A stretch of 64,000 nt of DNA from a virus, in the IMG/VR virus record IMGVR_UViG_3300045988_159113; one strand, written 5' to 3'. Positions 5,064-58,678 of the stretch are shown here, in pieces. The position numbers and the translations under genes are program-made. Position 1 is the first letter of the stretch. Every line of letters starts with the position of its first letter. A model generated the notes under the pieces. The model saw nothing but the letters and a program-made list of their open reading frames with translations, was not told the origin of the DNA and searched no databases.

Positions 5064-5066
5064 TAT

Positions 5067-5682: not shown

Positions 5683-5683
5683 A

Positions 5684-7438: not shown

Positions 7439-7476
7439 AGGACAAGTAGGAGAATATCCTATTTGTCCTTTTTTTT
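7439..7476. terminator. bidirectional terminator between the convergent arms
   Basis: AAGGACAAGTAGGA pairs with TCCTATTTGTCCTT (14 bp, one G-U pair), loop GAATA. A T8 run follows on the + side and a T-rich tract follows on the - side. Confidence 0.7.
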
Positions 7477-16300: not shown

Positions 16301-19300
16301 TTGTACTATCAACAAATCCGTACTATTCTAATGTATCACGCAAATCTTTTGTGTCTGAAGTGTTTAGTTTTATTAACTTTGGTACAGTCTTCAACAATGC
16401 TATAATACTTGGAATGTTGACTTTCTTATCTAATTCAAAGAAGATATGTTTCTTGTCAGATGGTTTGAATAACCCGCCAAACTATTTGAAATAAGTAAGA
16501 GCTTCATTTGCACTCGTTCCATCCAAGTATTCAGTGTCATCATTAGAAGACTACATGTTATTTTCGCGAATCTTATACTCAACAGATGATGGAGCAGGAA
16601 TTCTTCTTGACTGCTGAATTTCCTCGTATGTATCATATTTTGCATACGGTGACCACAAATACAGCTTTCCTCCTTTATCAACAGAGTATGTAGCTAATGA
16701 TACAGTATCAATATCATAATCAGAACCTTGTAACCAAATCTGATCAGTAGATACGAATGCATTATTTACGTCACTGTCTACAAATCCAACCACACGCATG
16801 GGCATGAAAGAGTGCTGACACTATGCAGGAATACGAGATGCTACAATATCAAGTGTTGTTTTAAAAGATGCATACATTCTCAATCCTTCTGTTCTAAACT
16901 TTTCCAGTAAGAATTTCGAGGAGCTGCTAGACATAGATTTCAAATAATCTTTGAATACCTCTTTGATTTGTGCGCTCTCGCTGCTGTCTTTCAATTCATC
17001 TATTATATTGTTAAGCTATTCATTTGTTCCTGATTCATATACAGAAAAACAACGATCAATATACCGATCTATATTTGTATCATCTACATTGTTGCCCAAA
17101 GTTATATAGCTGTATTTGATATTATCCAAATAAAGTTCTGGATTATCTGTGACTATAATCTTCTGGCAGTACAAGTTATCCACAATAATTTTGTCATCAT
17201 TTCCAATTTGGAATAATTCTGCACCATTATCACTCAGCAAGATTTTGTTTCCGTTTATATCTATAGTTGTGCGTGGAGATATTTCGTGTACATCTTTGAG
17301 TTTCTTGGCATTAGCTTTGCTAATAATATAAAAATGTTCTCCTGTGATATTTTTGAGACATATATCATACAAATTCTTGGAAAGGATACCGTCCCAGTTA
17401 TCCATTAATCTTTTACCAAAAAATCCTAAATAATTAATATCATTAGTTGGTGTTTCGTTTTCTATGAAAGATTTAGATTCATAAGAATCCAAAATATTAG
17501 ATACTGAATCGCCTGCTTTTAATCCGTAAACAGTTGCCATAACTTTTGGCATCACAACTTCATATGGATCACATTCAACTGTTGATCTATCTACATCAAC
17601 TTCTTGTCCGTTTATTTTTACACGAGTCCGATTTGCAACAATCTGCCTCAAGATCTCTTTTTGCAAATAGAAAAATTCTGGTGTAAGTTCAAGGATTTTC
17701 CCATTGATAGTCAATTTACGTTCACCTGTTCTTCCAAGTACATAATTTACCCAGTCGCGAACTCTATCACAATATGCGATTGTATTATCAAAACCATCAC
17801 ATAATTTGTCAAATTCAGACAACAAATCCGCAGTGTTTTGCGATAAATTATTCAAATCATACTGCGATTCAATCCTAAGTTTAGAATCAATTTCTTTTAC
17901 GACTTTATTAAATCTTTCTTTGTCAGAGATTACTCCATAATCAATACCTACTGTTTTGATTCCAAATGATATCAACTCATCAAAATCTGGCTAATCTGAG
18001 GATTTGATTTTTTTGATTATTGATTTCAGTTTGAATAAGTTGCGAATTGAATCAATATCCATAAGCTGAAACTTATTTCCAGAAGTATCTCTGAATATGT
18101 AGTTTATACTAGACAATTCGTGTCCAGCATTAGCAACCTCTATGACTTTAGAAATTTTTCCTTCGTTAATCTATTCAGTTAGAGCGATATAATCTTCTGC
18201 TGATGTAAGCTTTTTCACCTTAATTCTAGCACGGTCATATATCTATCTTGCTTTTTCCTTAACTTGTTCATTCGTCAAATCTTTATTGAAATGTTTTTGT
18301 AATGCTTCATAAATTGAAAGTTCAACATATTCATTGAATGTTTGATCAGGCTCTCCGAATATTTCAAAAACATCTTTCAGATTCTACAAATCAAGTAAAA
18401 TTTGAGACCCTTCTATTCTGACACCTTCCTTTATATTTTTTCTTGTATCTCGAATTCTTATGATATCAAAATCATTGTATTTGGTAACATTCTCATCGTA
18501 TTTCCATAAGTTGGGTATAATTTTGTATGTCTTACCAATACGGATTCGTGATGTATCTATCTTCTTGAGTTTTGAATCAGATGCTAAATCAATGCCATTC
18601 TCTTGCATATATTGTTGCGATTTCATTTGTGAAATATCAGCAACATTTACATTGTTTGTTGGCTTTACCTTTACAACTATATCTCCTGGATTAGCATCAA
18701 TTGAATCACCAAATTTCTACTCTACAAGTTCATCCTTACCGATAGCATAGACAATTGGATCTTCAAGAATTTCGTATTCAATATCATTTGCATCATACAA
18801 CAAATCACCTTTTCTGAAGTCAAAACGATCATTGCTGTCTTTGAAGTTGAATGACACGATCATCGTATTATCTTCGCTGTTCTATTTGAACGATTGAAGA
18901 CCTTTGACGTTATATTTACGTGGAACTTTTACAGGTCGTTTCTATTCCAAGAAATGATTGTTTTTCTCTTGTAAGTTTTCACGAAGTGGGTTGTTATCAC
19001 TGCGCATAATAACAGCAATATTTTTTGCTCTAGTCAATGCGGTATACATCAGCTTGGATTTAACGTCATCTGTTGTCCGTTTGTTATGCATAATATCATC
19101 ATGCTGAATAAGGACAACATCATAAGTAGAACCTTGCGCTTTATGTACTGTTGTTGCATAAGAAAGTCCAACATCAACAGCATCATTGTCTTTCATCCAT
19201 TTTTTCAATCCTGGATTATTTTCTATAAAACGCTAGCCAAATTGCATTTCAGGTATTACAGTCAAAGAAACCGTATTGCCATTTGATAGTTCTACCTATA

Positions 19301-22300
19301 TTTCCTGCGTGTGGAATGAACGCTATGCATTATCTTTCCCAATCTATGCCTTTTGAGATACTGGATCTGATACACTGACAATTTTGCCCTCCATGGAATT
19401 TTCAACAATCTCTGTGGTTTGTTTCATTACGACAAACTCACCAATTCCATATTGATTCTTTTTGTACCCTAAATAGTCGTGTATCTTATTGTTGAATCTA
19501 TTCACCTCATTGTTAGTATATGCAAGTATTTTGATAGCGCTCACATTTCCAGCTTGCACAGATTCTTTTATGAATTTAAGCGTCTGATCATTTAGGTCTA
19601 AATTGCTAGAGTAGATTGCGCCACTTTCGTTTTCATTTGTGATATTCGGAGAAGTTATTCCTGGAACATTATCGTAAAATCTTTCTGCATATCTCAAAAT
19701 CGGGTTTTCACTAGATCCTTGTCTCATATTCTATTCAAGAGCGAATCTCAGTTTTACAAGATTCGGACCAGCATTTGGGCTGAGATACATGTCCGGCTCT
19801 CGCATTTCAGAATCAAATATTGTGTAGTTATTAAACAAATCGTCTTCTAATGCTGGCAACTGACCTTTGTCTCCAAGTAATAACAAGATAGAACCTGGTT
19901 TCATTTGCAATCTGATCATATCAATCTGCGAATTGCTTAACATGGAAATCTCATCCAATACAACAATATCTGCATTTTTGATTGGTGCTTGTTTACCAAT
20001 ATGTGTGTAATCAAATACTCCATCCGCATTTGGCTTTATTCCAAGCATCTATGCAAAACTCAAAGATTTATAATTTGAATATCGCCCATGCTTAATACTC
20101 TCTGATATATTGGAAGAGATTATATTTTTAGCTTTATGACTTAATGCTCCAACAATCAAATTCGCCTATGATGTTATCCTCATTGGTAAATTGCGCAATA
20201 TTGCATCCACAGTTGATGTCTTACCTGTTCCTGCTTTTCCATCAATTACGATTGTTGAAACTTTTGTTGATTCATCACCAAAGTTTTCCGTGATCAGTTT
20301 AATTGATTCGCGTACAGCCTCAGACTGTTTTTTGTTTAACTGGAAACCATTTGATATGATACTGTCAGATACACTTTCATCAGTAGGATTTAGTTCAATA
20401 TTGTCGTTGAATTTATTAGAGAAATTTTCACGCCCTTCTTGTGCATCTACATACATCATGGAAACTTCTGGATCTATGAATGTACGTCTCTCTCTAGTAC
20501 CTTGCTTTGTTATATCTATTTTTGACATAACGGAGTTTGGACCGCCGAGATATGTAATGCCATCGATACTATCAATTGCTTGTACAATAGCGTCTTTTGC
20601 TTTAGTATAGTTGTCTAGACGTTCTTTCTTACTCTTTGTTGTATCTGCAACTATTGCGAATTTAGATTTCAAATCTTCTGAAATGCCAGCAATTAAATGG
20701 TTTTCAAATTTATATCCATCTCCGCTTATATCTTTTGGACTTCTTGCTATATCTTCAAGTAAATTCAACAAATCATATAACTCATTGGCATCTTTTACAG
20801 ATTCTTGACGACCAAAACAATATGCTGTATTTTCAATATCTGTTTTTACTGAGTACAAAACTGGATCAATTCCATTCGGAGACATGTCCCAATTTGATTT
20901 ATCAAATTTACCTTCATGTATTGCTGCACAAATAGCTGATTGATCAAATGTGTCTTCAGTAGAGTGAGTTGAAAGCATTATCTTCTTATTCACCTATTGA
21001 AGCATTTGATACAAAGAAGAAGGAACATAATATTCCCATGTCTGTCCGGCCATTGCTAGCTCTTGCTTTATAAATGATGCATTTATAACCTCTTGAGAAT
21101 TAGATATTGCAAAGAAGTTTTGTCCAGCTATACGTATTGGTGCGATGATAGCATCATTGCCAAAGACCTTTTTGACATCTTCAACAGTGCCAAGTGCCCC
21201 ATCTTTTGAAAGCGATTCGTCATCACTACCGATTAGCAGAAGTGCTCCATCTCGTATCGCCAATTTCCCTTCGTCTATGATTGTTTTGTTTATATCTTGC
21301 TTCGGCTTGCTCTTTGGATTCAATGTGCAAATCAGTACAATATCACCATTTTGATACTATGAACAGTTGACTACATCTGGATCTTGTTTTAGTGCCATTG
21401 TGACACTGCGCTCAGACAAATAATTTTTTTCGCTATTTTCCGCAGATGGCAAATATCCTATATATTTGTTTGATATCTAAGCCATGACATTGAGCTGTTC
21501 AAAATCTTTTTGTATTTCCTGTTTCTTTGAAAATACAGGCTCGAGATTCGCTGTCTCAAATTCATACGCCCAAGATACATTCTCCAAAAGTTCTGCAAGT
21601 ATTCTTGCAAGGCTTCTGCTTGCTGGCTATCCATCATATATTACCTTTGACGTATCTTTTGCCATCATGTTTTTATAAGCAAGAATAAGTTTCGGATTTT
21701 GATATGCCCACAATTCATATAATGGTTTCAAAAATGTCTCGTATTCTTCTTCTCCATATTTTGATGGCTTAGTATCTGTTGCTTTGTTATAATCATCTAT
21801 TATTTGTTTGATTGATTTACCTGAAATGTCTTGCAAAGAATCTTTTTTCGCTGTAGATCGTGGTGGTCTCTTTGTAAATACAGGCTCTTTTCCTGGTTTT
21901 TTAGGCTCTTCGCCAGTTTGCGTTTCTTCCCATTTCTAATATTTAGCTTTTGCTTTCTCCCATTTAGCATGTGCATCTTCAAATTCTTTGTGTTCTTTTA
22001 TATATGCATCATGTCTTTTGTTGAATGATTCAATTGCTTCTCTTTGCTTTTCTTCATAGAATCCTTGAAGCTTTTGAAATATAGTGTCTGGCAAATAAGT
22101 TCCGGGTTTAAATGTTGCATTTGCTGGTAATAATGCACCAAAAGATGTCTGAAAATTGAAATATTCACCTGTTGGCAACTACTATGACCAGCGGTCTTTT
22201 GCCGGTCTATCATCAAATACAAATGTTTTTTCACGATATATACATTTACCTCCATTGATCACAGCCCAATCTTGATTAAGATGTTTTGCACTCATTACAG

Positions 22301-25300
22301 CAGCATATCCAATACCAGATTGTCCATCAGATAAGATTCTGATTTTTTGATCTCCTATGCTAGTTGTTATACCTTGTATAATTCCAACAAACGTTCTATT
22401 GAAATCTGATTGCTATATGAATTTGCTTTTGAACTTAGTAATATCATCGCCTATTATACAAATATTTCTTTTGTCTGTTGTATTAGCAGCTTTGATATTT
22501 TCAACAATAGTTTCGATTGTATTATTGATGAAACTCTAATTTCCAAGATCTGTGTCAGATATTTCTATTATATGCAAAAGTTTCTTTTTGTCTTTTGCTT
22601 TTTTATTTGCTGCATCTATGCGTTGCTGTAAATTAAGAATATCCTTTTGGTTTTTATCTTTTGTGAACACGTAAATCTCATCAGATTCTACCATCAACTA
22701 TTGATATAGCTATGAACGTCTCCCTTGTTCTAAGAATGTAAAATGCTCATCAAATTTTTCCCCATCAGTTTTCTCTTGTGTCTACTCTTCGCTTCTCTAC
22801 AACACATTCCGTTCCATTTTGGGAATTATTATCTTTGACTTATCTTCTGAAAATGCATAAGCATCAGCAATACTCTAATCATTTGCAAGACCATCAGCAG
22901 CATCATGCTCGCTATTGCCTTCAATAACATCCAAGAAGCCATATTCCCTGAACATCTCATAGGTTTTGAGATTATCTTTGCTAACTTCAGAATTTGCAAA
23001 TCTTATATCCTTGCCAATAGGAACAGCATTTGTAATAGCTGAGAATAAACTTGAAAGCTATTCTTCTGTCAATCCGTTTGTGTCCATATTGAATATGATA
23101 TCATATTCATTTGTCTAGAAATTGTATGTCAAATCTATATATCCATCATGGCCGTTTATACTATAGCGTGTAGCATCTACGTTCATGTGTTCTCCGTCAG
23201 CGTTTGATGCGGAAAGTGTGATTTGTTTAATATCTACATCTGTATTTCTATGCAAATCAAAAGCAGCATCTTGATCATATGAATTTTGTAAAGCGTTTAT
23301 TTCTGAATCAAAATCAGCGAAATCTTTTTTTAGTTTACCATTACCGTAAACGAGTACACAGTTATATGATGGAGTTAACACACTCAATGATCCAGATATC
23401 TTGTGCTTGATACCTTGCTTTGTGAGTATTGATGCAATAGATGATATAGCTTGTCTATATATAGATTTTGCACTGAATGGAATTTCCAATTCGGCATAAT
23501 CAATAACCTAGCCATGTCTTTCTTTATCCAATATTTCCTGGGCATACTGCTTTGCTCTATCTGTTTTGCCTGCTCTATTTGCTAATGTCTTTATGAGGCT
23601 TTTATTTATAGCAGCATAGAATTCTTTTGTTGCGTCGGCTACCTATGATTCTGTAGATTTCGGATCAAGCATTTTCTCAAATGGAACAATGAAATCTCGT
23701 GTTCCAACTTTATTCAAAGAATATAGGGCTTTGTACAAATTCTGTGCAACATCAAATGTGAATCCTCTAAATGCACATGCATTCATCACCTGTGTCATCA
23801 TCGAAAGCTCAGCCTCGTCTGCTTGGTGCTCCTTATCAAGCTGTATTCCAAACTGAGTTGTCAAGAAGTATGACCAATTTAATTTAGCATTTTCATCATT
23901 ATATACAGTATTTGGATTCATGTTGCACTGGAACATCTTAACAGCCCCCTCAGTTGGCATATAGTGTATATTGGCATGTTTAAGAACCTAATAGAAATAT
24001 TTGACACTATCACCATCTTGTATTTTTACAAAATCAAGCTCATTGTCAGTCGGGTCAAGTTGATCCTTAACAACACCTATATCATTTGCCATATCAGCAA
24101 TCATCTGTACGGATCGCTCTGAGAGAACAAGCTTGCCTTCTGTATTCTTTGAATACGAATTTTCTCCTCCGAAAATTTCCCAAAGTGTGTAGTTGTTGTC
24201 AATTTTAACAGCCTCACCTGTTGGCATGTTTTTGATAAGATTACCATAAGCATCAACCTATTGCAACTTTACATAATACATGTTAATGCCAGGAGCTTTT
24301 TCAAGAGAAACACGATAAAATTCTCCATTCTCTTTTTTATAGACAGGTCTCGTTGAGAAATCTATACGATTGCCTTCTATTGTCCTAGTAATATCTCCGT
24401 CCCATTCAGTACCATCTGGATTTATCCATTTCAAAGATGCGCTCATTCTGAACAGATTACGATATACGCTTGAACCACGCATGTTTTCATTATTCAATGG
24501 GAATGCGGCTGTCTTCATCATTCCAGCACACATGAGCCTCTCATTATAATAATGAGCATACGGTTTCTTTGTCTAGCCCACTCTAGCACTGGCAAGCGAA
24601 TTGTTTTCCCAATATACTTGCATTGGACTTGTAAATGTCGCACCATCAAACGGTTTCACTCTATCAGTTTGACCCAAGTTGTTATAAGCGGATGCATATA
24701 TGTCTTGAATCAATGCTAACTTTGCACGAGTTGTTATGCCATTCCTCTGCCCAAGCTGGGAACCTTCCATTGCTGCTGTAAGTGATACATTACGTTTTGT
24801 TTGAGCAAGATAACGCAACGATTCGGCTGCCATTATCTTTTCACGTTCTGTAATTGCAGAAGTCTTTCCTTTAGGTATATGAGAAATAATTGATCCAACA
24901 GAGCAGTGAGTATATTCAGAAGAAAGTAAATAATCCACAAGATTATACTGTTCCAACAATGGGTTCATCTCAACGTCAAATTTCCCATCTTTCAAAAATT
25001 CCTTTTCTGTTACGTTCGGATCAAGCAAATAGAGATCTGTGTAATTTTTTATATCGTAAATTTTACCGTCTTTTTTAATTTTTGCAATAATCATCTAGCC
25101 AGAATTCTCATCATACCAGAACACTCCTTCTTTCTGACGGATTGCATCAAAACGAGCCTTGAGATCAACAATTTCCGGATTATTTCCTCTTGCCTCTTTC
25201 ACTGCTGCTGATTGCCCGTTTGTCGCAAATGCAAGACTCAGGTCTATTGCAAAATTATTTTGCAATAAATCCCAGACAGTTTTCTTGTTTTTATAATTAA

Positions 25301-28300
25301 AGAATTCATCTATAGTATAAAAATCAGATAGGTTGATCGGTGTTAATCCTACATTGCCAATCTGTGTATTAAGATTCTCGACATAGTCTTTGTTGAACCT
25401 GTACAACAAAGAAATGATTGTGTCGTTGAACTTAATATTTTCATTTTTATCAAATGTGCAATCTACCTAATTATATAATTCTGCAGGGTTCACTCTTCCA
25501 TTATCTTCGGTATTATACCACAGCAAAGCTTTATCGAACAACTATTTGTGTGTATTGATTCCTATTTCTTTCAATCGTCCAGCATTTTCATTGAACCAAT
25601 TATAGAAAGACTAAAATCCAGATAATGCATGCGGTTCGTTTGCGTAAAAATTAAATTGAGGAATTCCCCATTTATCAATATATTTGTTTATAACGGTAAA
25701 AAACCCATTGCTACTGTTCACGAAATCTTCTGAGATATTTTCATATACCCTTCTGTATTGCAAACCAATTTCATTGCGTATAACTCGAAGCAATGTGTCT
25801 TTTTTCTGCTATGTATTCATGTTTTGATCATTCAACACCTTATACATAGTTTGATTATTATCCAATTTGAATAGAGCAAGATTGAATATCGCTGTGTTCA
25901 CTTCACTTTTATCTGAGTTCGTTGTTGGAAGTATACCAATAACACCATCACCAAAAATGTCTTTGCTAGTCGATCCTGTTATTAAGTTTTGGCTAGATGA
26001 TTTTTTCATTAGTCCAGATATGAACTGATACAAAAATCCTCCATACATAAATTCAGCCGTGTTGAATTTTACGGTTCGTTTGCCTTTCTGTGCATACGAA
26101 TAGCTTTCAAGATTCTTGGCAACGCCAACAAACAATCCTGGCATTTTGACAAAAGCAGAATCTTTTGTTGCTGAATCTTCTTTTGTACATTGCAGCTCGA
26201 CCTATTCCTAAATACTACCCAGTAATCTGCTCATGCTATATGGTGAATATGCTGATCCATTTCCAGATTTCACAATTGATGGCATATTCATTTCTTTCAC
26301 AGCAAACACAGCTCGTGCTATTCTTATAAATTCAGGAGTCATCGTTGGAGTTATCAAAGAAAAACTTTTTCCTAATAATTCCGGCGCATCATTACTTGGG
26401 AAATATTTTTCAACTAATGCAACCTTATCATCACGTGTTTTTTCATTTGATAAACCCGTTTGCAACTAATCTTTCAATATAGCATTTGCTTTTATTTGAT
26501 TAGCAAACAAAAACAGGTCTTTGACAGCATTAAAATCACTTCCAGATCCCTTGTATTTTTTGAAAAGATAATCATTATATCCAAACCCAAGACAAGTCTG
26601 ATTCGATACAAATCGCTTCAATATTCCAATAATATTACCAGCATCTTTGCTTGGAAGATTATCGAAGAAATCCTTCACACTCTAATCAGATAATACAATC
26701 CGACCTGAATCTGTGTTTAATAAAGTTATCGTAGGCTTTTTTGGATTTTTTGTGTCTGTTTTTACGGTAATTTTATACCCGTCTCCTGTAATCCAATATG
26801 TGATTTTGTTTGGGTTCTTTTCGTCAACCTACGCATTATGTCCTTCAACTGATAATTTTAAAGCATGAGATCCGTTGATATTGTTTTCAAGCCTGATTTT
26901 CAAATTATCAAATTCCTGATCAAAAAGATATCTGACTCTAGTTCTTCCTCTTCTGTCTGTATAATATTGCGTGATTGCATTTTTATATATAGTTGCAGCG
27001 TTTTGCGTAAAATTATACAGAATGTCACGATTCACATCGAGATGATACAAAGAATCACTTTCTGAGGAAAATATGCCTCTATAAATAGAGAACAATTTGT
27101 CTTTCTTTTCTTTTGTATCATATCCATACTGTGCAAACAACTATTTGATTATCTCTTCATTTTGAAATTTAGCATTGTTTAATAATTCCAAAACATACCG
27201 TATGTTGTTTTCCATGTCAAGTTTCATTGATGTGATACAACGCCGTAATGTTTTGTGCTTTTCAACATATGTTTGTGTTTCTTTACTAAGGCCAAGATCG
27301 GATATTTTTGCGCTAAATAATCCATCAGCTCCTATTTCTACATAAGCGCCTGGAGATGATGCCATTGTTTTAATGTCTGCAATTACAGTTGCAAAATCAG
27401 AATAACTCAAATACAAATCTGGCTTTGCTTTTTTAGTTACAGAATCATATTCAGATGTTGTTTCGATTCCACCTTTTACAATGTAATTGATTAACTTGTC
27501 AACTATAATCTCATCTGCTTCAGCATGCGTCGTTCTATTTGTGTGACTTTTATTTGCCAAAGCATATGCCATATATCCGTTGTGTTGTTGCTATGTACTT
27601 GGCAACATCTCAATATCTTTTCCAAATAGTACAGTCAGGAAGGAATCAAAATTTGACAACAGAACAAATGCATTGTACGCATCAATAAATGCTTGAGCTT
27701 TCTTTCCGTTTTCAGTTTTCGGTTCACTCTCTGCAATATTTGCTTGTTCCAAAATATCTTCTGATGTGAATCGGTTGAAAAAGTCTTGTAATCTTGTTTT
27801 GTTCAGATCAAAAAGATATGTTGGCATTAAATTGTCACTTGCATCTTTCCTGTATAATGTGCCCGTGATAGAATTTTCACCTTGACCTTTATTTGCATTG
27901 TAGTACTCTACAAGAATCCCAAATTGGGATTCCTGTAAAGTTTTGAGATTATTATTCATCTAAAGTTGTGAAGTCACTGCACCGGCATTATCTTCTCCTC
28001 CTATCGAGCCTCTATTGATGAAGCATGATTCCCAGATGTATCTTGTGAATTTATCCTCGAATCTAGACCTTAACAGATACATACCACGAAATGCATAATC
28101 AAGGAATAGCAAATTCAATTCATTATCAGCATGCTTTCCATACACACTTTTTGTAGTCTCAACATTTGATTGTGTAGTACTTGGAGTTTCTGGATCAGCA
28201 GTTGCTTGTGTTACACCAGTGATTGCTCCTCTAATTATTGGACCGAAATCAAAATTGCTAAATCCTGAAGCATTTGAAAGTATTGTGTAATAAAGAGACG

Positions 28301-28535
28301 ATTTGATTATTGGCTCTGCAAGTCCAATAAAATCATCAACATGATCTTTTATGTCTGGGCTAGAATTCAAAATGTTTTCTCCGATATGTTTGCATATTGT
28401 TTGTGCCCAAGCAACAAATTTTTTTTCTGGAGTTGAATTCTATTTCATTACGTCCATAAATATGGACGTGCTGCCCATTAAAGTGGTACGAACAACAGAT
28501 TTTGCTGTTTCTTCATTAAATTTACATTTATTCAT
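13344..28535 (-). CDS. 5063-aa giant multidomain protein: SLOG-like motif, Dda/RecD-type SF1B helicase core and beta-prime-like DxDxD RNA polymerase catalytic loop
   Basis: One frame runs from ATG 28533..28535 (first ATG after in-frame TAA 28551; 11 nt after the upstream gene's TAA) to TGA 13344..13346. Every gap between track ORFs was hand-scanned: 66 in-frame TAGs and zero TAA/TGA. Confidence 0.8.
16707..16721 (-). other. DYDID (DxDxD) metal-binding motif of a two-barrel RNA polymerase
   Basis: The reverse complement GATTATGATATTGAT encodes DYDID. Context: IVASRIPA[TAG]CQHSFMPMRVVGFVD..NNAFVSTDQIWLQGSDYDIDTVSL. This parallels bacterial beta-prime NRAPTLHRLGIQAFEP...NADFDGDQMAV. Confidence 0.65.
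19023..20240 (-). other. SF1B (Dda/RecD-like) helicase core inside the 5063-aa ORF
   Basis: Motif I GKAGTGKT (20217..20240), II VVLDEISM, III LLLGDKGQLP, V ATTVHKAQGSTYD, VI YTALTRAK (ending at 19023). The motifs are in canonical order and are separated by seven in-frame TAGs. Confidence 0.75.
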
Positions 28536-28545
28536 ATCATCAATT

Positions 28546-31500
28546 TTAACTTATAGAAAGGACTATTGAACAAATTCCTGTTTGATTTTCTTCAATATCT
28601 TGTTTGAGCTTTTGTGCTAGTGTTTCAAGCTGATCGACTGCAGTTTTTAAATCTATTTGCCCATTTTGAATATCTTGTATTATAGTAAGATTTTGACTAG
28701 TTAACATTCCTATAAGGATATTTACTCCTTCATCTAATCTGGTAAACGAGCTTAAAATATCAATTGCCTGTATAAAGTTACTAATTTCCGTCTTGATAGA
28801 ATCTTCATATTCAATTTTCTAAGTATTACCATTTTCATCAGGTATCATTTTCTCTATTATCTTTTTTCCTTGATTGCTCAAAATAGGTGTAGGAGGAGTT
28901 CCTGGCGCGCCAACAATGCTAACATTGTTCATTATTATATTTGCATCGCTACCCAACTAGACCTATACACCACTACTTGATCCTCCTTCACTTCTGGATT
29001 CTGGATGCTTTTCAACTGAGTAGTTTACACGTAATTTTCCGGTTGCCATATCAGATTCAAAATTTATGGTTAATTTATCACCATTTGAGTTTTTAAATTC
29101 AATACCCAACAATGTTTCTGCATTTTCATCGCTAATTAAATCAATATCAATATCATCTGTAAATTCAAAATCTATATTTTCAAAATTTATATTTTGATAT
29201 TGCGGTATTGAATTGAAAATCGCCTTCCAACTTGTAAGAGAGTGTGAGATGACTGGATACTATATAGTTTGTCCGTTTAACGTACCATTGAGTTGAGTGC
29301 ATTTTCTAATGTTGCACACAAATGCAGTATATTGCATATTTTGAATATCATTCGGTTTTATCCTTCTTGCATTTTTCGGTGGGAATATATCAGCATCTCC
29401 GTCTAATACAATGTCAAGAAAACTCTCATCACCTCCAAATAAATGTTTTGCTACTTCAGCCTTAAATTCTTCATCAGTTAATGCTCTGCTTCTACTTCTA
29501 CCTCTTGATTGAGATCTCGTGTAAAAGAATGGGTGTGGCTTTCCGGTTCTTCTATCAATATTTGTGTATCCATACAAATCGTCATAGCCATTTCTTTTGT
29601 TCTCTTGCTCAGCATGATCAATTGTTTCCAAAAACAAATTGTATAAATTAGTTAGGTTAACATTAAATGCTGGTGTATCAAGTTTTCCATATACAGTGCA
29701 AGGCCTACCTTGTAACGAGTACGTTGTAAAACCATACATATCTCTATCTTGGTCTATTAATCTAAAATCATCCTGTCTGTCTTCATTACTTTGATGCTTA
29801 AACTTAGCAACCGATCTCACTGCATATTCATCTCCAAGTAATGCTTTAAATGCATTAATCCTTGCTGTGTTTATCGTGTCTGAATTATTATCATATGCTA
29901 TGTGATGTAATAAATCATTACATAAAGCTGTGAGTGAGTGCTATGTGGTTATGTCCTGAAGCCCTTGTTTTACAGTTCGTGTGATTGTTATATTATCTAT
30001 GTCGGTATAATTATATTCTCCTCTTATGGTATGTGCTATTGCATTTAATATCGTATGAGCTAATCCATGCGACGCTGTTTCCACAGTCGAGGTTGCCAGT
30101 TGCCAGCTTCTTGATGTGTTCTTGTATTTTGCAATATCAGATCCATCAAGGAAATTCCTCAATTTAGTCAATCTGTTATTATCAACTTTCCCATCAGATC
30201 CAATGATTGCATCTCGCAAGATCTTATATGATGAGAATTTGTTTCCAATTCTGAAATTACCAGAAGCACTGCGAGTTAATATTCCATGAAGGTTTTCACA
30301 ATATTCTTCAACACTATAAAGAGGTGTGTATACATAGGCGTAGAAAACATCTTTTCTTGAATTAGGATTATTTCTCTACTCTTTAAATTTATCAATCAAA
30401 TCTCCTTTTGTGTATGCAGGATTGAAAGAATACAAGACGAACGGCATACCAGATTGAACCTCTATTTTTTTACCAGGTTGAATCTCTATGTTTTGAATTT
30501 GTGATGTCAGCATTAGCATGTCTGTTTTTATACACATAGGATTAGACAAAGCTTTTGCAACTTCTGTTGCGTTCATTTTATCTTCAGCCTTGAATCCCAA
30601 ACGTGGATCTAATGCAGTAGATCCTCTTTCGGTTGATCTTGTATTTGACTGTGGGTTGCCTATACTTGCAAGATTAGTATTTTTTGGCAAAAAAACGATG
30701 TCATGATTAGTACTGTCAAAGAACTTAAATGACTATAAAAGCCATTTTAAAGTGTTTATCTTTTTCTTGTTTTTCGCAGTATTTGCATTTGATGCACTTT
30801 CTCTTGCCTCAATCTCTGTTTTCAAAACAGTCTATATACTTGTAGACTTATTATGCGTTTCGTCACCAGAGGTCAATACTCTATCGATTTTTTTGAGAAT
30901 ATTATTTTGAATAGTATTCTCATCATTAAACAGATCTAAAAACTCTTGACTCTAAATCAGTGAGAATGGATTGTTTAATGTCATCATTGGTAATTCCAAG
31001 AATAGCTGTGATGTGTTTTTCCCATCTGCGTCCTCGCTCTCAATTCCAATAAATGAGACAATTTGATTTGGACTTGGTGGGATATCCATGTCTTGATTAA
31101 ATTCAAGACGCTCCGCTTCGTTTCTGTTAAAGATTCCGTATCTTTGACCACTGTAGTTTGTTTGATCTTCCAATGTATTTCCATCTGGTCCATATTTCAC
31201 AAATCTTGTTTTTATTGCATGATCTATGAACAGATTGCCTATTTCAGCATTGAAAACATCTTCTTTTACATTAGCTCTTGTACCATCTATTTGTATATTT
31301 TGACTTTGAACTTTTGACTTTACAAAAGCAAAAACATTTGTACATGCTGATTTGATCTATTCTTTTAGTGTATCATTATTTACAGTACTTAAAAGTGCAG
31401 CTCTAAATGGAGCAATTAGTTTGATAGCATCTTCTCTAGTAAAAAGACTGCGGAATGTATCAAATACGTCTTTGTTAATAGCAAAATTGTCATATCCGCA

Positions 31501-34500
31501 CCAATGAGCAGCGAGTTTCGCAATACCATTGATACTGTCAATTCTATGTGAATTATGTTCATAGTCGCTTTTTCTTTCTCCTGTTGTGACTATTTTCCCA
31601 TTGCCATCCCAAATAGCACCTGTCTCAAATGTATTGAAACTGAAAATCAAGCCTTTCAATCCGTCTGGATTATCAAAATCCACAAAATGTTTTTCTTCTT
31701 TAGATCCTGTACCACTATTGCCTGTTGGTGGTTCTTCTCCAAAGCTATCATCAAACTCATCCCAATTCACATCATCAAAAGATTCTGGTTGAATTCTTTT
31801 TTGGAGTACAAACTCATTGAAAGCATCCTGTAAAAAATCAAGTATTCTGTTATCGTATTCAATAACATCTCCATATTTATTTCCTGCCGTTTTATTTTCA
31901 TCAATACTCATATCTATGACTTCAGAAAATGTGTCAGGTTTAATTATGTTATAAATATGCAAATTACCAAATTTTGTTTTTAATGCTTGAGTTAGTGATG
32001 TAAGTTCTGGGCTAGATTTTACATAAGAATCTGCCATAAATGGAGAACCACCTATCAACAAATCCCATTTCCCGTTTGGCCTTAATATTGCACAAATCTC
32101 TGCATTATGATTGATTCCATGTGGATCAATACCAAATCGAATTCCAAGAGTTCCGTCATCGTTAATCTTTGCAATATACTTTTGCGAACCATCGCTTGCA
32201 ACCCAAGGAATCGGCATGAGTTCTAATTCTTCACCATCATATTCAATTTTGATTTTTGGATCACTCTCAAATGCAGATATGGCTTCGTCGATATTAAGAA
32301 CAAATGAATCTATTCCGCTATTAACGTACCCATTATTGTTTAATATATCAAAAAGCTATTCAAACGATAGTGTGTTGATATCTCCATTTTCATCAATATA
32401 TTGAATAGTGTTTGCGTCTTCGTCAAAATTTAAAATAGTGATTTTTTTATCTGTAGTTGAATAAGACAACCCCTACGTGACACTTGCCTTGAATACATCA
32501 AATGCAGAAGGAATAACCGGTGGAGGAGTTAATTTGATTAAACCTCTAGTGATTCGATCGTTAAACTCATCATAATCCATTGTGTGTTCTGTTGTTGCAT
32601 CTGAGTATTTAATATCTACCTATTTTGTAGCTTTTACTACTACATCAATAAATGTATGCTCCTCTATTGTTCCAGGCGAAGTTTCCATGTAAAATTTAAT
32701 GCCTGGAGTGTATCCTTTTGCTTGCATCTCGCCAAGTCTTAAAGACCTTTCGATTGCCATTTCTGCTGCATTCCACGTAGTTCTTGGAGCATGGCCTCCT
32801 CCAGTTCCACCACTAGGACTTGGTCCAGAACTAGGTGCTGGAGATGGACCTGATCCAGGTACAGAAGTAGTTGGTCCGGTTCCAGGAGTAGGACTTCCTC
32901 CAGGTGCTGGAGATGGACCGCTGCCTGGTGTAGGACCAGAACCAGGAGTAGATCCTTGAGTAGTAGGTGCAGCAATAACTGTTCTTTCTTTGTATTCAAC
33001 ATCATCACTGGCATTTGCCAATGCTGCAGTCAAAATTGTTTCTTTCTTTATTGCGTAGTTTTCAATTGCTTTTTCTGAAAGTTTTTCTAATTGATACGAA
33101 GATTCTTGTTCACAACTCAAATTTATACGACCAGAACCATCGATTGATTGAATATTCGGATATACAGTATTCCCTATGCTGTTCGTAAAATTTAAAATAG
33201 TAGCAATTTCAGAACGAGTTTGTGCAGTATATAAATCTTTCAAGAATGATTTCGTACTTTTACTTTTTTCAGATCCTACGTCATCAATGTTAAAATCAAC
33301 AATGTAATATTTACCTTCAGATCCTTGAGCAGATGTACCAGGATACATTTCTATTTTATCAGCATAATGAGTTGTCAAATATTTGTACATGTCACTATTT
33401 GTGTCATTATAGATGTATCCAACTTTTTCTCCATCTGCTAATTTTGCAAACATTGAATCTATAAATTTATGGTCAGCGCTAGGATTTATTGTTTGAATAA
33501 AATCACCAATCAAACCTTCATCATTAGAATAGTAATATTTTAGTTTTACATCACCACCAGATTTGTTTTCTTGTAATGTTAAAAGCTGTTTCCCATTGAT
33601 GTTCTTCAGATTGTTTCTTGTGCGCATTGAGAGTCCCATCTTGTAACTATGGCAAAAATTTTGACGTTCAATTTCGCTTTCCCATTTATACATTACACCA
33701 TTCAACTCTACATCAAATGCACCATATGACTATGACTGATTTGTGTCACCAGATATAATTACAGCAATACCATGTCTTTCTGCAAATTTTTGTAGAAGAT
33801 CAAGTTCACAACTATTGAATTGTGAAATTTCATCTATTATTATAATTTTTGGAGCATCACTTTTTGTTGATACATTAAATTTGGCGCGAAGTTCATTTTC
33901 ATCATCAAATTCAAGATCTTCACTTTTAACATTAATTGTACCATCTTCGTTTACGCTGTATATTTCATAATCTGGTGCAGCATATTTCATCAGCTATTTT
34001 TTATTCATTACATTAGCTGAATCTACACCACAATCTTCTGCAAGTTTTTGTGATTTTTCTGTAGATTTTACATTGTCTGCATCATTATATCTATCTGCAC
34101 CATGACAAACAATTGCGCCTTCAAGAAGATCAGGACGATATTTCTTGATCATGCTTACAACCATAGCGTCACACGCTGTAGTTTTTCCAGTTCCAGGACC
34201 TCCTTCATTAAGCACAAAGTTTTTGTATCTGAAAAAGCCAAATACATTCATGATGTATTTATCGTTCTCTGGTTTCAGCAAATTTGCATATTCCCTCTTA
34301 AAATTCTTTATTGCTCTTTTATCTGCTTCTGAAAAACTAGCCCATTCTTTCATTATGGCCTTCTTGACCGCAGACTCAAACTTTGTATACATATCACCAT
34401 TGAACACAAACGCAACTTGGTTCAAAATATTTGCCTCTTGTGTTGTTATTGGAGCATATTTTGAATTTATGGATTTTCGTGTATTCAAATACATTTTGTG

Positions 34501-37500
34501 TAGCTTGCTTGACTTTACCGCTGCACATCTCATTAAATATGTAACAAAAGCAATAGGATCAACTTCATTCAAATTTTTTGTCAATGAATAGGTCTTGTTT
34601 TCATAAAGATTCAATTTTCTTGGCTTAATAATTCTTGCCAGTTCATCTTCTGTTAAGCTATTAAATAAATCGTAGAGTTTGTCCTCAATTCGAAGAGACT
34701 ATTTTGTTATATTGATCTATTCTTCTTGACTTGGTACTGACGTGATTCCAGAATCTAGCAATCCCTACAAAAGATTGCTTTTATTCTCTAGAATATCTTT
34801 CAATTCCTTAAAATGAACGTTGTTTTTTATATCATCGTCATCATCGTCCAAAATCTACACAAATGTTTTCACGCCTTTGAAATTCAATCTGTGCAAATTC
34901 ATTGACACTTTATCTTGTTCTTGTAATTTCTGGCCTTCGTTTATATCCATCAGTGTCTTAGCAAACTAAACTTTTGCTATAAGAGCATCAACATCATTCA
35001 GAAAAACATCAGCTATATCTTTATCAATCTCGGCTAAATCTGTCCAATCCTCAGTACCCTATGCATGATTGATATCATTCAATGCTTTACTATATCCATA
35101 TATATTTAAAATGTCAGCATTATCAACTCTTGATCCACTGATAGCAGCACGATACATTTTTAGTAATTCCAAAGCATTATCAAATGCTTCACGCATTGTT
35201 GGATCAAACTAGACATCTCGCAAATTATGCTTTGCATTGTCCATTGCTGTATATGCAGCATTTATTAATTGGAGGATATCAGTGTACTATCCAGTCAAAG
35301 CAATTGAAAATTGTTTCAGACTTTCAGAGATTGGAGAATTCGCCTTTTCTCGTATAGCTATTTCTGCAGCTGCGAGTTTACTCTGTAATGATGTCAATCT
35401 ATCTATTACAATATCTTCGTCTTCAGGTGACAAAAATTCACCTGTTCCTTCTGTTAATTTCTTTAGTTTAGTTTTTACGTTTTCGTTTAAATTTTTTAAA
35501 AATGTCAAAAGTGCAGATTTTACTTCTGGATGCAAAAATTCCTAAGATGTAAACTTTTCAATAATTGAATCAAAATTATCGTAGAGTATGTTTTCTTGTT
35601 TATCCTAATAATCTTTTTGTTTTAGTTCTAGTTTTTCTTGTAAAGCTGGAATAGTTGGATCTGAATCATCTAATTCAGCGATTTGCTATTTGATATTATC
35701 AATTTCATCAGAAAGTGTATTCAAAAGTCCAATTTCATATCCCGATCCCTCTTGCTCTGTCAAAAATTCTTTGAGATAGTTTTGTTGAGAGCCTATTGCA
35801 TTCTGTGCATTTTCCATCCAGATATCTTCGCCAAGTTCTGTTGGCATATTAGACATCATGTACAGTTCATGAATCAGCTAAGTAAGACCTCCAACGGTTG
35901 CGTTGTTAGCCTGTGCTTTATATGCATCAGCCTAAGTTGATAAGATATTGCTTGTTCCGCGCAATACATCAACAAATTGTGTAGCAATGTCATGTATTTT
36001 TTGTTTACCTTCTCCATTTTTCAATTCGTTAAACTTCGCAACAGCATCGCTAATTTCAGACTCAGTTAATTCATTGTATTTTTTATCGTACAATTTTTCT
36101 GCATATAGCGGTAAGATTACAGTTGTCAATTGTCCACTCAATGCGGTATTCATTTCAAATAATGCATCTTGTATGTATTTGGCAGCGTGCTTTCCATTTA
36201 CGAAATCTTGCACTTTCTTTTGTGCTTTTTCATAATCTTCAGTAAGTTTCTTCAGCTGATTTTCCTCAATTATAGTAGTTTCCTCTTTCCTTTCCGCTGC
36301 TTTTTTAGCATCTGTTTCTGGTTCGTGCGAATGTTGAAAATCATTCAATAATTTAGAAGCTTTAACTAAATCCGTGCATGCTGTGTTAAATTGCTACAAG
36401 TACATTCCTGCTGTTGTTGCTTTTCTTAAAGCATAGAAACGTAAATCTTTCAACGCACTCTAATCCAAGAAACTATCGTCATCAATAGCAGCACCTTCGG
36501 CATTAAGAGTGTCAACTATCAAATCAACCTATTTTTTTACTGCATTCTTTATATCGATAGTTTGATTGTGTTTTTTATCGCCTGGTTTATAGATAATGTT
36601 GCCATCTTCATCTGTCGTAGTTTCGAAAGTCAAGCGTTTGTTTCCAATTTGTAAATCATTGAAATCCATTTTGTCAATTGACTTTTTAAACTCAGAAACT
36701 TGTTTCGGATCTCTGCATATACTGACCAATTCCTATATAGCTGTATCATAATCAAGGGATTTCATATATCGCATACCTTGATAGCTGGTGAATGCGTTTG
36801 TAAAACTACCACCAGCCATACCGCCAAAAAATGACATGAGATATCGGTCTTTTGCATTTTCCCAGGCCCCCATCTTATGCTCATCGTCTCCCTGCAACCA
36901 CTTTACTGTATTATAGCAAGATTTTGTAAAGTCAGCAGAAAGTTCCTCAATAACCTCTTCTATACCTTCGCCAAGTCCACCAGCCAATGTCGCTTTTGTC
37001 ATAAGGCCAGGTGTGCCATTGGCATATTCTGCCTTTGCTATCTTTTTACCAATATTGAACAAGCGATATATGTATTGCTTTTTACCCTCATTTGGCAATT
37101 TCTTGATTGAACGCTCAACAAGGTCACCTCCGGTGTCTTTCATATCTTGAGTGATAGCTTTAACTAAAGCCTTGTTTTTGAATTTATCAGCACGTAATTC
37201 AGGCAAGATCCATTCTCCTATTCCTGTATTTAAGATTGCGGCTTCTTGTGCAGCATACCCAATAGCGACCATTGCAGCTTCAAGATCAGTTGCTCCAGCT
37301 TCTTTTGCTTCACCATAAGTATCTAATGTTGTGATACCGTTCATGTAGGCCTTACTAAGTACTTCGCCAACCTTTTGATATCCTTTCAGGAAAGTGTTCA
37401 TGTCTCGCTCTGCATTTATTGCAGCCACAGCCAACAACTCATTTCTCGCTTTATCTGCTGAAAACTGATCAATAAATGTCCGCGATTTAGTGAGATCTTG

Positions 37501-38685
37501 AAAACGCCTCTCTGCAGCTGTTTTATATGCTTTTTCTATTTCTGCTGCTTTCTTCATTTGCCTTGATTCACTAGCGCCACCAATACCTTTGAAAAGAGCT
37601 GGTGCTTTCTCAAACAAGAAACGTTGTTCTTTTAGCTATGCTGCAACATCTCCTATCAGATTGATCCAGTTTTCAAGACACCAAGTGTTTTCCTGTGCAT
37701 ATTCACTTTTTGCCATCTGCCTGTTTAAAGACTTAGACCAACCTTCCATTGCAGATAATGTTGGACTATCGCTTCCAACAAGGATCTTACCAAGTGTTCC
37801 AAATAAGCCAACAGCTTGTGTTGCCACAGATAATCCGGCAACAGCTGGTCCAACATATGGAATGAACATGGTACCAACCAGTGCAGCATTTTTCAATAAA
37901 GTTTTGCCAACACCATTTTCTTCAAGATTATCAGAATCAAAAAAGTCGTATTTGTTCCAATCTGAACCGTCAACTGTTAAGGTATTCAATTTACTCAATA
38001 CACGCCTACCATAGATACTTCTGCCATCAAGATTTTCATAATAGAACGTGCCATTGTCATTGAGTTTCAAATCTCCTTTTTTATGTTCAATTGTTTCTCC
38101 GCTTATAGGATCCTTATGTGTTCCATCTTCGTCCCATTGTGCAAGCACACGAGTATCAAAGAAATCAGTGAAAAAGCTATCATTTGGAGAATCATGGTAA
38201 ATCGGTGCTGCGCCATTCTCAACTTCAACTGGATTTGCAAGTACTTTTTCTGCTTGCGCTATTTCATCAATTGACTTTGTCCTTTTACCAGGTTTACCAA
38301 GTTCGGCTATGCTGCTAGTAATTTGATAAGGATTTGACGCTTTGACAAATTCAGAATCAAAATCATCTCTCCTTTGCTTGTCAGGTGCGAAAAAGTTATC
38401 ACGATGAAATGAAACAAAATTTGAAAAATCCTGTTCTTGTTCCTATGTTGCCATTACATTATACATTGACAACACATTATCATAGAATCCTTTGAATTCT
38501 TTTTCATTAAAATTCCCACTTTCTGTTTTAAAAGCCTACTGTACCAATTCGTTACTTTTGTATTCATCGTAGTCTTTTACAGTGCTATTGTCTGCAGTAA
38601 TTCCAACAGTCTATAAATCACCCATGCTAAGGGTCGGATTTACGAGCACGTTAAGCAGCAAATCATTTTTCTTTTCCTCATTCAT
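28546..38685 (-). CDS. 3379-aa giant protein: N-terminal glycine-zipper/hydrophobic segments, coiled-coil-like region, second SF1 helicase core, Pro/Gly/Ser/Thr linker
   Basis: ATG 38683..38685 lies 3 nt after the upstream TGA (TGAcatATG). It ends at TAA 28546..28548. It has 36 in-frame TAGs and no other stops (hand-scanned). Confidence 0.8.
32776..32970 (-). repeat. low-complexity Pro/Gly/Ser/Thr linker (GC-rich, internally repetitive)
   Basis: Encodes APTTQGSTPGSGPTPGSGPSPAPGGSPTPGTGPTTSVPGSGPSPAPSSGPSPSGGTGGG. An approximately 18-nt unit, aggtgctggagatggacc, occurs twice. Confidence 0.8.
33208..34203 (-). other. second SF1 helicase core
   Basis: Motif I GGPGTGKT (34180..34203), II IIIDEISQ, III IISGDTNQS, V-like GTSAQGSEGKYYIV, VI LYTAQTRSE (ending at 33208). 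The core spans the TAGs at 33994 and 33730. Confidence 0.65.
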
Positions 38686-38688
38686 ATG

Positions 38689-46600: not shown

Positions 46601-47447
46601 TCTTCATCTTGAGCTGATTATTGTATGATTCAGGATCATCATCAACTTCCTCTTCTTGACCATTGCCAAGTAAACGTTCACGTAATGATCTGCCAAATCC
46701 TATAGCGTCTAATGCTGTTGCATCATTATTGTCGTATGTTCCATCTGCTAATGATGCGGCTGCTTCTGCGAGCTTCTGCTTATAATCTGCAAGATCATGG
46801 AATGCACTACCCTGAAAATCAAACGAGTCATCGTTTAGAGTTCCTGCATAATCGGTAAGCATCTGTGCAAGAGCGTTTGCTCTATTTGTATTACCACGTA
46901 CTCCATTATCGTCTAATGCATCACGATCAACCCAAGATTGAAGATCTGCATCCTCATTTCCGCCATAGAATCTATTCCAGAAATATTTTCTAAGAGCGCC
47001 AAAGTTATACTTTTCTTTTTCTTTAGCTTTAGGTGCTTCATATTGAGGCGCTGATTCCAAAATCTTGTCTAACAAGCCAAGACCATATGATTGCATCTTG
47101 TTATCATCTCCAAGAAATGTTCCAGAGTAGATCATACCATCGCCACGTCTCAAAGACCCATCACGCAGTCCTTGCTGGATTTTTGCAGCTTCATTCAAAA
47201 ACTGATTATATTTCTTGCTGCCTCTACGGAATCCTATATGCTCAGCAAACAAAGGAATATTCTTTTCGTAAAGTTCTGCAAGCTTAGCAGCATCATATTT
47301 CCCACTTGATGTCTAAAATAATACGGGCTGCTCTTCATCGGAAACGGGGGCCTCTACAACTACCTATTCCTTAGGCACAGATGGATCACTTCCAACTACC
47401 GTTCCGCCTGTTTGTAATTTTTTAATATATTGACTCATATTTTGCAT
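40605..47447 (-). CDS. 2280-aa giant protein with glycine-zipper/hydrophobic region and Thr/Pro/Gly linker (ejection or cargo-type candidate)
   Basis: ATG 47445..47447 is the first ATG after in-frame TAA 47448 and lies just downstream of a terminator. It ends at TGA 40605..40607. It has 18 in-frame TAGs and no other stops (hand-scanned). The segment IASGIASFVPVIGNAIGAIGGTAGTVGNLI...MTGLMLIPGGGLVKAG is glycine-zipper-like. Confidence 0.8.
42537..42713 (-). repeat. low-complexity Thr/Pro/Gly/Ala linker
   Basis: Encodes PRTTRPRPRPAVTPTTGGGTTTTPTTGGAPTGGTAAPTTPPSATTAPTPAGGSTTTAPP. This is a local GC spike that spawns spurious ORFs on both strands. Confidence 0.8.
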
Positions 47448-58600: not shown

Positions 58601-58678
58601 GAGGATATTATCGGGAACCGTTCCGACGTTGTAGTCCATAACGATCCCACCCTCGAATGTGTTCTGGGCGTATTCCAT
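52673..58678 (-). CDS. 2001-aa tail-like structural protein (the last 141-157 aa could be a separate product if the TAG at 53150 terminates)
   Basis: ATG 58676..58678 to TGA 52673..52675. It has 19 in-frame TAGs and no TAA/TGA (hand-scanned). The sequence is beta-rich and Asn/Gly/Tyr-rich, typical of tail or receptor-binding proteins. Confidence 0.7.

Follow-up and report, generated by a model that had tools for sequence, protein, structure and literature searches.

A very divergent superfamily 1 helicase core in a gp47-related protein, probably virion cargo, of a TAG-recoded crAss-like phage

The 64,000-nucleotide stretch of viral DNA analyzed here (IMG/VR record IMGVR_UViG_3300045988_159113, hereafter the window) carries on its minus strand a gene for a protein of 3379 amino acids (aa), directly before the gene of a giant virion RNA polymerase. 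The 3379-aa gene is real and intact, and belongs to a large human-gut crAss-like phage. Its product consists of an N-terminal module of about 900 residues that is remotely homologous to the N-terminus of gp47, a virion protein of phage crAss001, followed by a middle region, a superfamily 1 (SF1) helicase core and a variable C-terminal part. The integrity of the gene, the architecture and synteny kept throughout the family, the conservation of the helicase motifs and the remote homology with gp47 are established. On balance, the protein is more likely than not a virion cargo, probably ejected, with a motor that would open the incoming DNA for the polymerase. Packaging and ejection, contact with the membrane and partnership with the polymerase are what we infer for this protein.

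The helicase core is compact, with about 340 residues, and very divergent. Residues 1490–1655 match two Pfam families above their cut-offs, AAA_30 (E = 5.9e-9, 36.4 bits for a cut-off of 27) and AAA_19 (E = 5.1e-8, 33.6 bits for a cut-off of 25.1), and AAA_30 matches 15 out of 16 diverse family members. In a set of 40 members with identities falling to 20%, G1495, G1498, G1500 and K1501 of the Walker A motif and the D1618–E1619 pair are invariant, as are G1646, D1647 and Q1650 of the GDxxQ motif, R1688, N1691, G1788, E1790, T1820 and R1824. Motifs III (GDxxQ), IV, V (QGxE) and VI (T..TR) follow one another in the canonical SF1 order. The preliminary description of this DNA, made from the letters alone, had proposed an SF1 helicase core on the basis of the peptides GGPGTGKT (residues 1494–1501), IIIDEISQ (1615–1622), IISGDTNQS (1643–1651), GTSAQGSEGKYYIV (1784–1797) and LYTAQTRSE (1818–1826). 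Profile matches above cut-off and the complete set of motifs I–VI bear it out. The invariance of the motif residues argues for a catalytically intact core, an active ATPase that is kept under selection.

The subfamily of the helicase is left unassigned. The Viral_helicase1 family, which corresponds to the second RecA-like domain (2A), is matched with 15.9 bits, below the cut-off of 21, and by 2 of the 16 members (best E = 1.8e-5). No Pfam match to UvrD_C_2 was found in the 3379-aa protein. Single-sequence searches of the PDB retrieved no solved helicase with the helicase region, and no helicase with the whole protein. The family profile aligns with Upf1/Nam7 and nidovirus nsp13 across motifs I–VI, with E-values of 0.002–0.008; these helicases have in common with the 3379-aa protein the full SF1 motif set in canonical order, at marginal E-values. 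When a 410-residue core query was compared with 5.8 billion proteins, no stand-alone helicase was recovered, only one fragment from the same family. Because the PDB matches are marginal and no stand-alone relative was found, the core is filed from its sequence as SF1 without subfamily. The public name RecD-like is not supported, as the single-sequence PDB search yielded no helicase, UvrD_C_2 is lacking, and the core is unlike that of the neighboring gene.

The neighboring polymerase gene, which encodes 5063 aa, contains a helicase core of its own. This core matches AAA_19, AAA_30, UvrD_C_2 and Viral_helicase1 in Pfam, and RecD2, RecD and Dda in the PDB; by these matches it is a clear RecD/Dda-type SF1B helicase, and it served as the positive control for the PDB search for this type. 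Comparison of the two cores gave a BLASTP E-value of 0.3, and hhalign aligned them with 19% identity over domain 1A only, which is a motif-level likeness. In a relative, L090, the polymerase has 3283 aa and lacks a Walker A motif; it can be aligned with residues 134–1753 and 3441–4879 of the 5063-aa protein. The RecD/Dda-type helicase is thus situated in an insert of about 1,700 residues (approximately 1754–3440) that is absent from the L090 polymerase. A recent paralogy of the two helicases is rejected by the motif-level similarity and the location in an insert. By alignment, they are independent acquisitions, which settles the question raised by this window. The occurrence of different SF1 helicases in adjacent genes, which the preliminary description had considered unusual and proposed to examine by pairwise alignment, was thus confirmed, one being of the RecD/Dda type and the other very divergent. 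The same description called the helicase of the 3379-aa protein a second, divergent one. Divergent it is, but it is not the odd one of the two, as it is present throughout the lineage (79 IMG/VR loci) whereas that of the neighbor sits in an insert.

More than 100 full-length homologues of 2600–3400 aa were found on contigs of up to 197 kb, and 79 loci were recovered from IMG/VR. As judged with profiles of the individual regions, the N-terminal module and the helicase co-occur in the IMG/VR loci wherever the sequence reaches far enough. By sequence comparison, more than 200 relatives or clusters share the same plan of a conserved N-terminal module of about 900 residues, a middle region, the SF1 core and a variable C-terminus. 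Conservation is highest at residues 100–650, with 62–73% identity at residues 200–350 in proteins that are only 20–50% identical overall. It is low at residues 900–1150, moderate at 1150–1900, collapses at 1950–2330 and is weak at 2330–3060. The middle region (residues 901–1400) is assumed to be helical, by extension of the helices that run up to residue 900. No match to the 3379-aa protein was found in PHROGs or NCBIfam. Against GenBank phages, megablast found nothing and tblastn found only two unannotated records. This amounts to a first domain map of a family with more than 200 clusters. Members are already known, as public records and one paper label them "helicase" or "RecD-like protein" without analysis (PMC12386605). 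In the literature searched, neither a helicase within the crAss cargo block nor its relation to gp47 was found discussed, and no domain analysis or cargo role was found for the labeled members.

The relation to gp47 was detected with profiles. The family profile compared with the single gp47 sequence aligns the region of a hydrophobic hairpin and of the signature that follows it with 35% identity over 81 columns (E = 0.0025), and the N-terminal profile alone yields E = 0.0014. The hairpin aligns to residues 97–130 of gp47. As a search for gp47 homologues gave only sequences that are 96–99% identical, a profile was built instead from eight GenBank phages (crAss001, Dulem virus 41, cr85_1, cr128_1, IAS virus, cr111_1, cr106_1 and Cellulophaga phage phi17:2, with gp039); this alignment holds only the first ~800–1,100 residues of each member. 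With hhalign, the N-terminal module matches the gp47 family over about 500 columns with Prob 90.3% and E = 1.5e-6. For the controls, namely five column shuffles, a reversed alignment and the profiles of the middle, helicase and C-terminal regions, E-values ranged from 0.15 to 0.89. The middle, helicase and C-terminal profiles compared with the eight-sequence gp47-family alignment gave E-values of at least 0.5. The match is specific, since only gp47 stands out among six crAss001 proteins, and only gp039 among six virion proteins of phi17:2, on a different colinear segment. Neither the HMMER family profile (--max) nor phmmer with each protein of the window matched anything among the crAss001 cargo proteins. 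As seen by profile comparison, the N-termini of the 3379-aa protein and of crAss001 gp47 are remote homologues.

The gp47 protein of crAss001 has 2341 aa (262.5 kDa), is annotated as "putative RNA-polymerase subunit" and is treated as an RNA-polymerase-associated cargo. Mass spectrometry identified it in virions, and it is considered a cargo that the capsid stores (PMC10172136). The elements common to gp47 and the 3379-aa protein are found in the same order: the hairpin, the signature WSxS...EQ..W.EN...IGD (WSES...AEQNDPWYEN..ANFIGD in gp47), an acidic G-E-G..EE segment and a Gly-rich segment. The genes are placed alike, gp47 being encoded after the muzzle protein gp44, the cargo protein gp45, which has a transmembrane helix, and cargo protein 2, gp46. 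Unlike the 3379-aa protein, gp47 has no Pfam helicase match and nothing alignable beyond about 800 residues, and the polymerase genes of crAss001 are on the opposite strand from gp47. A further homologue, gp039 of Cellulophaga phage phi17:2 (1957 aa; gp38 is the equivalent in phi4:1), is annotated as "structural protein" and encoded in a run of virion structural genes. Residues 111–266 of gp039 match gp47 by tblastn, and residues 490–646 match the N-terminal profile of the present family (E = 0.0033). It differs by the absence of a helicase motif, its much shorter length, and its origin from a marine phage of Flavobacteriia. Since neither gp47 nor gp039 has a Walker A motif, the helicase was added in this lineage. 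The link with gp47 suggests that delivery is served by a conserved N-terminal module whose payloads can be exchanged. RNA polymerase subunit, as gp47 is publicly labeled, was rejected for the 3379-aa protein, which has no Pfam or PDB polymerase match and no conserved DxDxD motif. Such strings occur at residues 1280, 2978, 3095 and 3178; that at 1280 was checked and is not conserved, and the other three are in the poorly conserved C-terminal part.

The N-terminal module (residues 1–900) was modeled with AlphaFold2 (AF2) as almost entirely helical, with a small β-region at residues 179–218 (predicted local distance difference test score, pLDDT, 73.8; predicted template modeling score 0.55). Its most conserved part, and that of the whole protein, is the hydrophobic Gly/Ala-rich hairpin, which is unusual for a plain membrane anchor. 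The two helices of the hairpin (residues 259–274 and 278–303) are predicted with pLDDT values of 71–86. Residues 267–285 reach a Kyte–Doolittle value of 1.59 over 19 residues, which is the maximum in the protein and the sole stretch approaching transmembrane hydrophobicity, the usual threshold being 1.6. For comparison, the value is 1.73 for the transmembrane helix of crAss001 gp45 called by TMHMM, and 1.57 for gp47 at its hydrophobic maximum (residue 106). Immediately before the hairpin, none of the 40 aligned members differs at N244, D247, D250, S251 or D252; this acidic motif, NKYDFFDSD(D), may be a site of metal binding, docking or interaction. Further on, R614, Y615, M617, G622, G625 and G626 of a Gly-rich helix are invariant. 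A membrane-insertion-like N-terminus had been proposed from VGTMFIPYVGPAVAGLSVATQAVGLFGTLGKILVG (residues 270–304) and MSFFGGMAGGSF (617–628). The hydrophobic hairpin is indeed present, just under the threshold, but MSFFGGMAGGSF is rejected as a membrane segment, being outside the 12 most hydrophobic windows and part of the conserved Gly-rich helix. The proposed likeness to phage ejection proteins is supported indirectly, by the remote homology of the module with the virion cargo gp47; no solved ejection or pore-forming fold was matched by Foldseek. With the N-terminal model, Foldseek found nothing significant in the PDB (best E = 0.19, generic helical transporters), and in the BFVD only the protein's own family, under the names "Helicase" and "RecD-like protein". 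These two entries, "Helicase [Podoviridae sp. ctz6O13]" and "RecD-like protein [Siphoviridae sp. gcode 4]" in UniProt, match with E = 1e-31.

The hairpin is relevant to two other explanations. It is improbable that the protein is not packaged at all and functions as a late intracellular helicase, in late transcription, replication restart or DNA packaging, with the N-terminal module as a soluble scaffold and the hairpin buried. The AF2 model does place the hairpin within a helical domain, conservation peaks in the hairpin as expected for a core element, and the cargo role of the 3379-aa protein is a predicted one. However, the gene lies within a block whose crAss001 counterparts (gp45, gp46, gp47, gp49 and gp50) were all found in virions (PMC10172136), the N-terminal module has homologues in gp47 and in the "structural protein" gp039 of phi17:2, and the replication helicases of crAss-like phages are encoded in a separate replication module (PMC7886860). 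Conversely, the hairpin might, after ejection, hold the N-terminal module at the inner membrane, where the ejection channel ends; the SF1 motor would pull the phage DNA in and open it, coupling internalization directly to the delivery of a template to the virion RNA polymerase, which prefers single strands. Such a membrane-tethered genome-entry motor is rated just as improbable; if true, it would do with a helicase what T7 and N4 do with a polymerase in DNA entry.

The minus-strand genes are, in order, those of the muzzle protein, a 394-aa protein, a 370-aa DUF192 protein, a 624-aa alcohol dehydrogenase, a 2280-aa protein, a 639-aa protein, the 3379-aa protein, the 5063-aa virion RNA polymerase with its DYDID motif, a 360-aa protein and a 1597-aa protein with a PD-(D/E)XK nuclease domain. 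The order muzzle, DUF192, ~970–1570 aa, ~620–645 aa, helicase protein and polymerase is kept in every relative inspected, namely one standard-code phage record of 117 kb and three metagenomic contigs of 102–193 kb. The published genes of Lera (PV725988), a Zeta crAss-like phage, show this order too: muzzle and DUF192 genes, genes of 2796 and 1887 nucleotides (nt), the open reading frame (ORF) 191 and the polymerase region follow one another, and stop codons are recoded. The 8346-nt ORF 191, which corresponds by its position to the 3379-aa gene, is named "RecD-like protein" (PMC12386605); this name and the two UniProt names are automatic labels only. As judged by the synteny with the published Zeta phage Lera, by the sizes of the contigs and by the recoding, the phage of the window is probably of the Zeta type.

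The proposed task of the N-terminal module would be to bring the protein into the capsid, to take it through the tail, or to associate with the cell envelope or the ejection channel. The 3379-aa protein would be ejected along with the DNA and with the product of the next gene, the virion RNA polymerase. The SF1 motor would then unwind the incoming genome or translocate along it, and the helicase would thereby provide the polymerase with a usable template. The related virion RNA polymerase gp66 of phi14:2 is efficient in vitro on single-stranded or denatured DNA and hardly active on duplex DNA; QDE-1, its relative in eukaryotes, depends on a helicase (bioRxiv 10.1101/2020.03.07.982082). Given the constant adjacency to the polymerase gene and this template preference, template opening is the most economical hypothesis. 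That an intact helicase belongs to a protein of the gp47 cargo type, the gene of which directly precedes that of the polymerase, makes the question of template opening testable. To our knowledge, no template-opening partner has been identified for the only crAss-type virion polymerase that has been studied.

Several points weigh against this explanation. The best PDB profile matches of the core are RNA helicases, at marginal E-values, and DNA unwinding is a predicted role. The link with gp47 is remote (~13–15% identity), is seen by profile methods only, with a gp47 profile of eight sequences, and escapes HMMER. The known cargo homologues gp47 and gp039, having no Walker A motif, are silent on the helicase part. 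The hairpin is borderline in hydrophobicity, and its extreme conservation could equally mean a buried core or a protein–protein interface. The predicted models of the N- and C-terminal parts have no structural relative outside the family by Foldseek. Finally, the cargo role of this family is predicted from homology and synteny, the detection in virions by mass spectrometry being that of crAss001 gp47 only.

The C-terminal part of the protein bears on another explanation. Beyond the variable region that follows the linker, a family-specific α/β-domain (residues 2330–3060) contains the signatures FNTFExG, RIDSxNG (with D2383 invariant), GHPFVLVS and YVxPP, which suggest a functional site. The AF2 model of residues 2181–3379 (pLDDT 68.6) includes several well-predicted α/β-cores, and Foldseek found nothing in the PDB below E = 0.095. 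The profile of the domain had 259 matches in 1.84 billion representative proteins. The 150 of these that were listed are proteins of ~2,600–3,500 aa with the domain at an equal relative position, or shorter pieces, and none of the 150 has the domain outside this family context. According to the region profiles and the IMG/VR loci, the domain is found only in the closer subgroup. This domain could be a second effector in a polyvalent anti-defense cargo of the type of phage P1 DarB, in which the helicase would move along the entering genome and shield it from, or strip off, restriction or defense nucleases, early transcription not being its purpose. The variable C-terminal payload of a giant multidomain protein encoded in a late, virion block, a C-terminal domain confined to a subgroup, and the rapid divergence of the C-terminal third, which fits an arms-race module, are in keeping with this. 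Virion-borne helicase fusions have a precedent in DarB, a component of the P1 head that combines a methylase with a helicase and protects DNA in cis (PMC5512222). The polyvalent proteins (Iyer et al. 2017) are likewise giant multidomain late-gene products with a helicase, presumed to be delivered with the DNA. However, the helicase of DarB belongs to SF2 and is fused to a methylase; DarB shares no domain with the 3379-aa protein and is involved in anti-restriction rather than transcription. DarB-type helicases are SF2/SNF2 enzymes, not SF1, and Pfam detects in the 3379-aa protein no domain of the polyvalent type (methylase, ART, peptidase or LPD families). Moreover, the helicase is the conserved part rather than the variable one, and the gene invariably adjoins that of the polymerase in the relatives inspected. 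An anti-defense function is considered unlikely.

The 1597-aa protein (7475–12268, minus strand) has a PDDEXK_1 nuclease domain of the RecB/AddB type at residues 172–364 (E = 1.9e-8), and the syntenic 4614-nt gene of phage Lera is annotated "exonuclease V" (PMC12386605). As the 1597-aa gene belongs to the same co-directional block, and as the "RecD-like protein" (8346 nt) and "exonuclease V" genes flank the polymerase in Lera, the helicase and the nuclease might work as a pair in the manner of RecBCD or AddAB, degrading host DNA or processing phage ends, after ejection or in the infected cell. The support for such a pair is co-location, yet the polymerase gene and the 360-aa gene lie between the two genes, and PD-(D/E)XK nucleases are common elsewhere in crAss-like genomes (PMC7886860); it is deemed very unlikely.

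The 3379-aa frame starts with an ATG at 38685–38683, ends with a TAA at 28548–28546 and contains exactly 36 in-frame TAG codons and no other stop, as the preliminary description had it. Every peptide quoted there was found in the translation. In the 40-sequence alignment, glutamine occupies 23% of the cells at the 36 TAG columns, 25% at the columns of the gene's own CAA and CAG codons, and 5% in the background. Because the glutamine frequency of homologues at TAG columns resembles that at CAA/CAG columns and is well above background, reading TAG as glutamine is justified by this alignment. TAG350 aligns with a glutamine that is identical in all 37 homologues compared, and TAG350, TAG651, TAG719 and TAG2770 coincide with strongly conserved glutamines. 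Nearly every large minus-strand gene contains in-frame TAG codons, whereas the five plus-strand genes at 1913–6445 contain none. This distribution fits a recoding confined to late genes, as was described in crAss-like phages (PMC7886860). ARAGORN found no tRNA gene in the 64-kb window, so that a TAG suppressor would be encoded elsewhere in the genome or otherwise supplied. A 2001-aa protein (52673–58678) encoded on the same strand as the 3379-aa gene matches the Pfam crassvirus muzzle family, and two proteins at 59769–61150 have weak Pfam matches to tail ring proteins 1 and 2. By its gene content and its in-frame TAG codons, the window is that of a crAss-like phage in which TAG is recoded.

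A single codon, CAT, separates the TGA stop of the 639-aa gene from the ATG of the 3379-aa gene, which is in the same frame (38683–38691). In the relatives, the genes of ~620–645 aa and of ~3000 aa are likewise adjacent yet separate.

The features of the 3379-aa gene and of the genes next to it are listed in Table 1. The 65-residue Pro/Gly/Ser/Thr-rich linker that had been noticed after the helicase core, taken to be flexible, was recovered as residues 1906–1970. It was rejected as a DNA tandem repeat, none being present.

Table 1. Regions of the 3379-aa protein and adjacent genes, with window coordinates
Feature	Coordinates	Strand	Basis or remark
Whole gene	28546..38685	(-)	3379 aa, 36 TAG = Gln codons, TAA stop
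N-terminal conserved module, residues 1–900	35986..38685	(-)	Conservation, AF2, hhalign against the gp47 family
Acidic motif N244-K-Y-D247-F-F-D250-S251-D252-(D)	37927..37956	(-)	Directly before the hairpin
Hydrophobic Gly/Ala-rich helix-turn-helix (hairpin), residues 258–304	37774..37914	(-)	Hydrophobicity, near-invariant in the family, AF2
Post-hairpin signature, residues 305–350	37636..37773	(-)	GSDSPTLSAxEGWSKS...SEYAQxNTWCxEN..NLIGD..Q; common to gp47
Gly-rich helix, residues 614–628 (RYxMSxxGGxxGG)	36802..36846	(-)	Helical in the AF2 model, low hydrophobicity
Middle region, residues 901–1400	34486..35985	(-)	Weakly conserved; middle profile found in part of the family
SF1 helicase core, residues 1488–1830, motifs I, II, III, IV, V, VI	33196..34224	(-)	Pfam, invariant residues, PDB profile search
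Pro/Gly/Ser/Thr-rich linker, 65 aa, residues 1906–1970	32776..32970	(-)	Sequence, composition
Variable region, residues 1971–2329	31699..32775	(-)	Mostly absent or unalignable in relatives; occupancy 0.2–0.6, low model confidence
Family-specific α/β C-terminal domain, residues 2330–3060	29506..31698	(-)	Signatures, AF2, profile search
C-terminal tail, residues 3061–3379	28549..29505	(-)	Poorly conserved
Downstream 5063-aa virion RNA polymerase	13344..28535	(-)	DYDID at residue 3939; Walker A of the RecD/Dda-type helicase at 2766
Upstream genes, 2280 aa and 639 aa	38689..47447	(-)	Hold the places of gp45 and gp46, cargo proteins of crAss001

The 2280-aa protein (40605–47447, minus strand), the gene of which holds the position of gp45, has two Gly-rich hydrophobic segments, at residues 578–596 (Kyte–Doolittle value 1.74) and 624–642 (1.47), that resemble the predicted transmembrane helix of crAss001 gp45 (1.73). 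The Pfam family crAss_CARG1 has no match in the 2280-aa protein.

The zinc alcohol dehydrogenase fusion of the cargo block (48112–49986, minus strand) lacks a counterpart at this place in three relatives, L090–L092, where a small ORF of 95–118 aa is found instead. In L091, a gene for an SLT lytic transglycosylase of 226 aa (1661–2341) is located between the muzzle and DUF192 genes; no SLT domain was detected in the corresponding genes of the window. The DUF192 protein (49986–51098, minus strand) is a constant member of the block that follows the muzzle gene, in the relatives inspected, including L090–L092, as well as in phage Lera.

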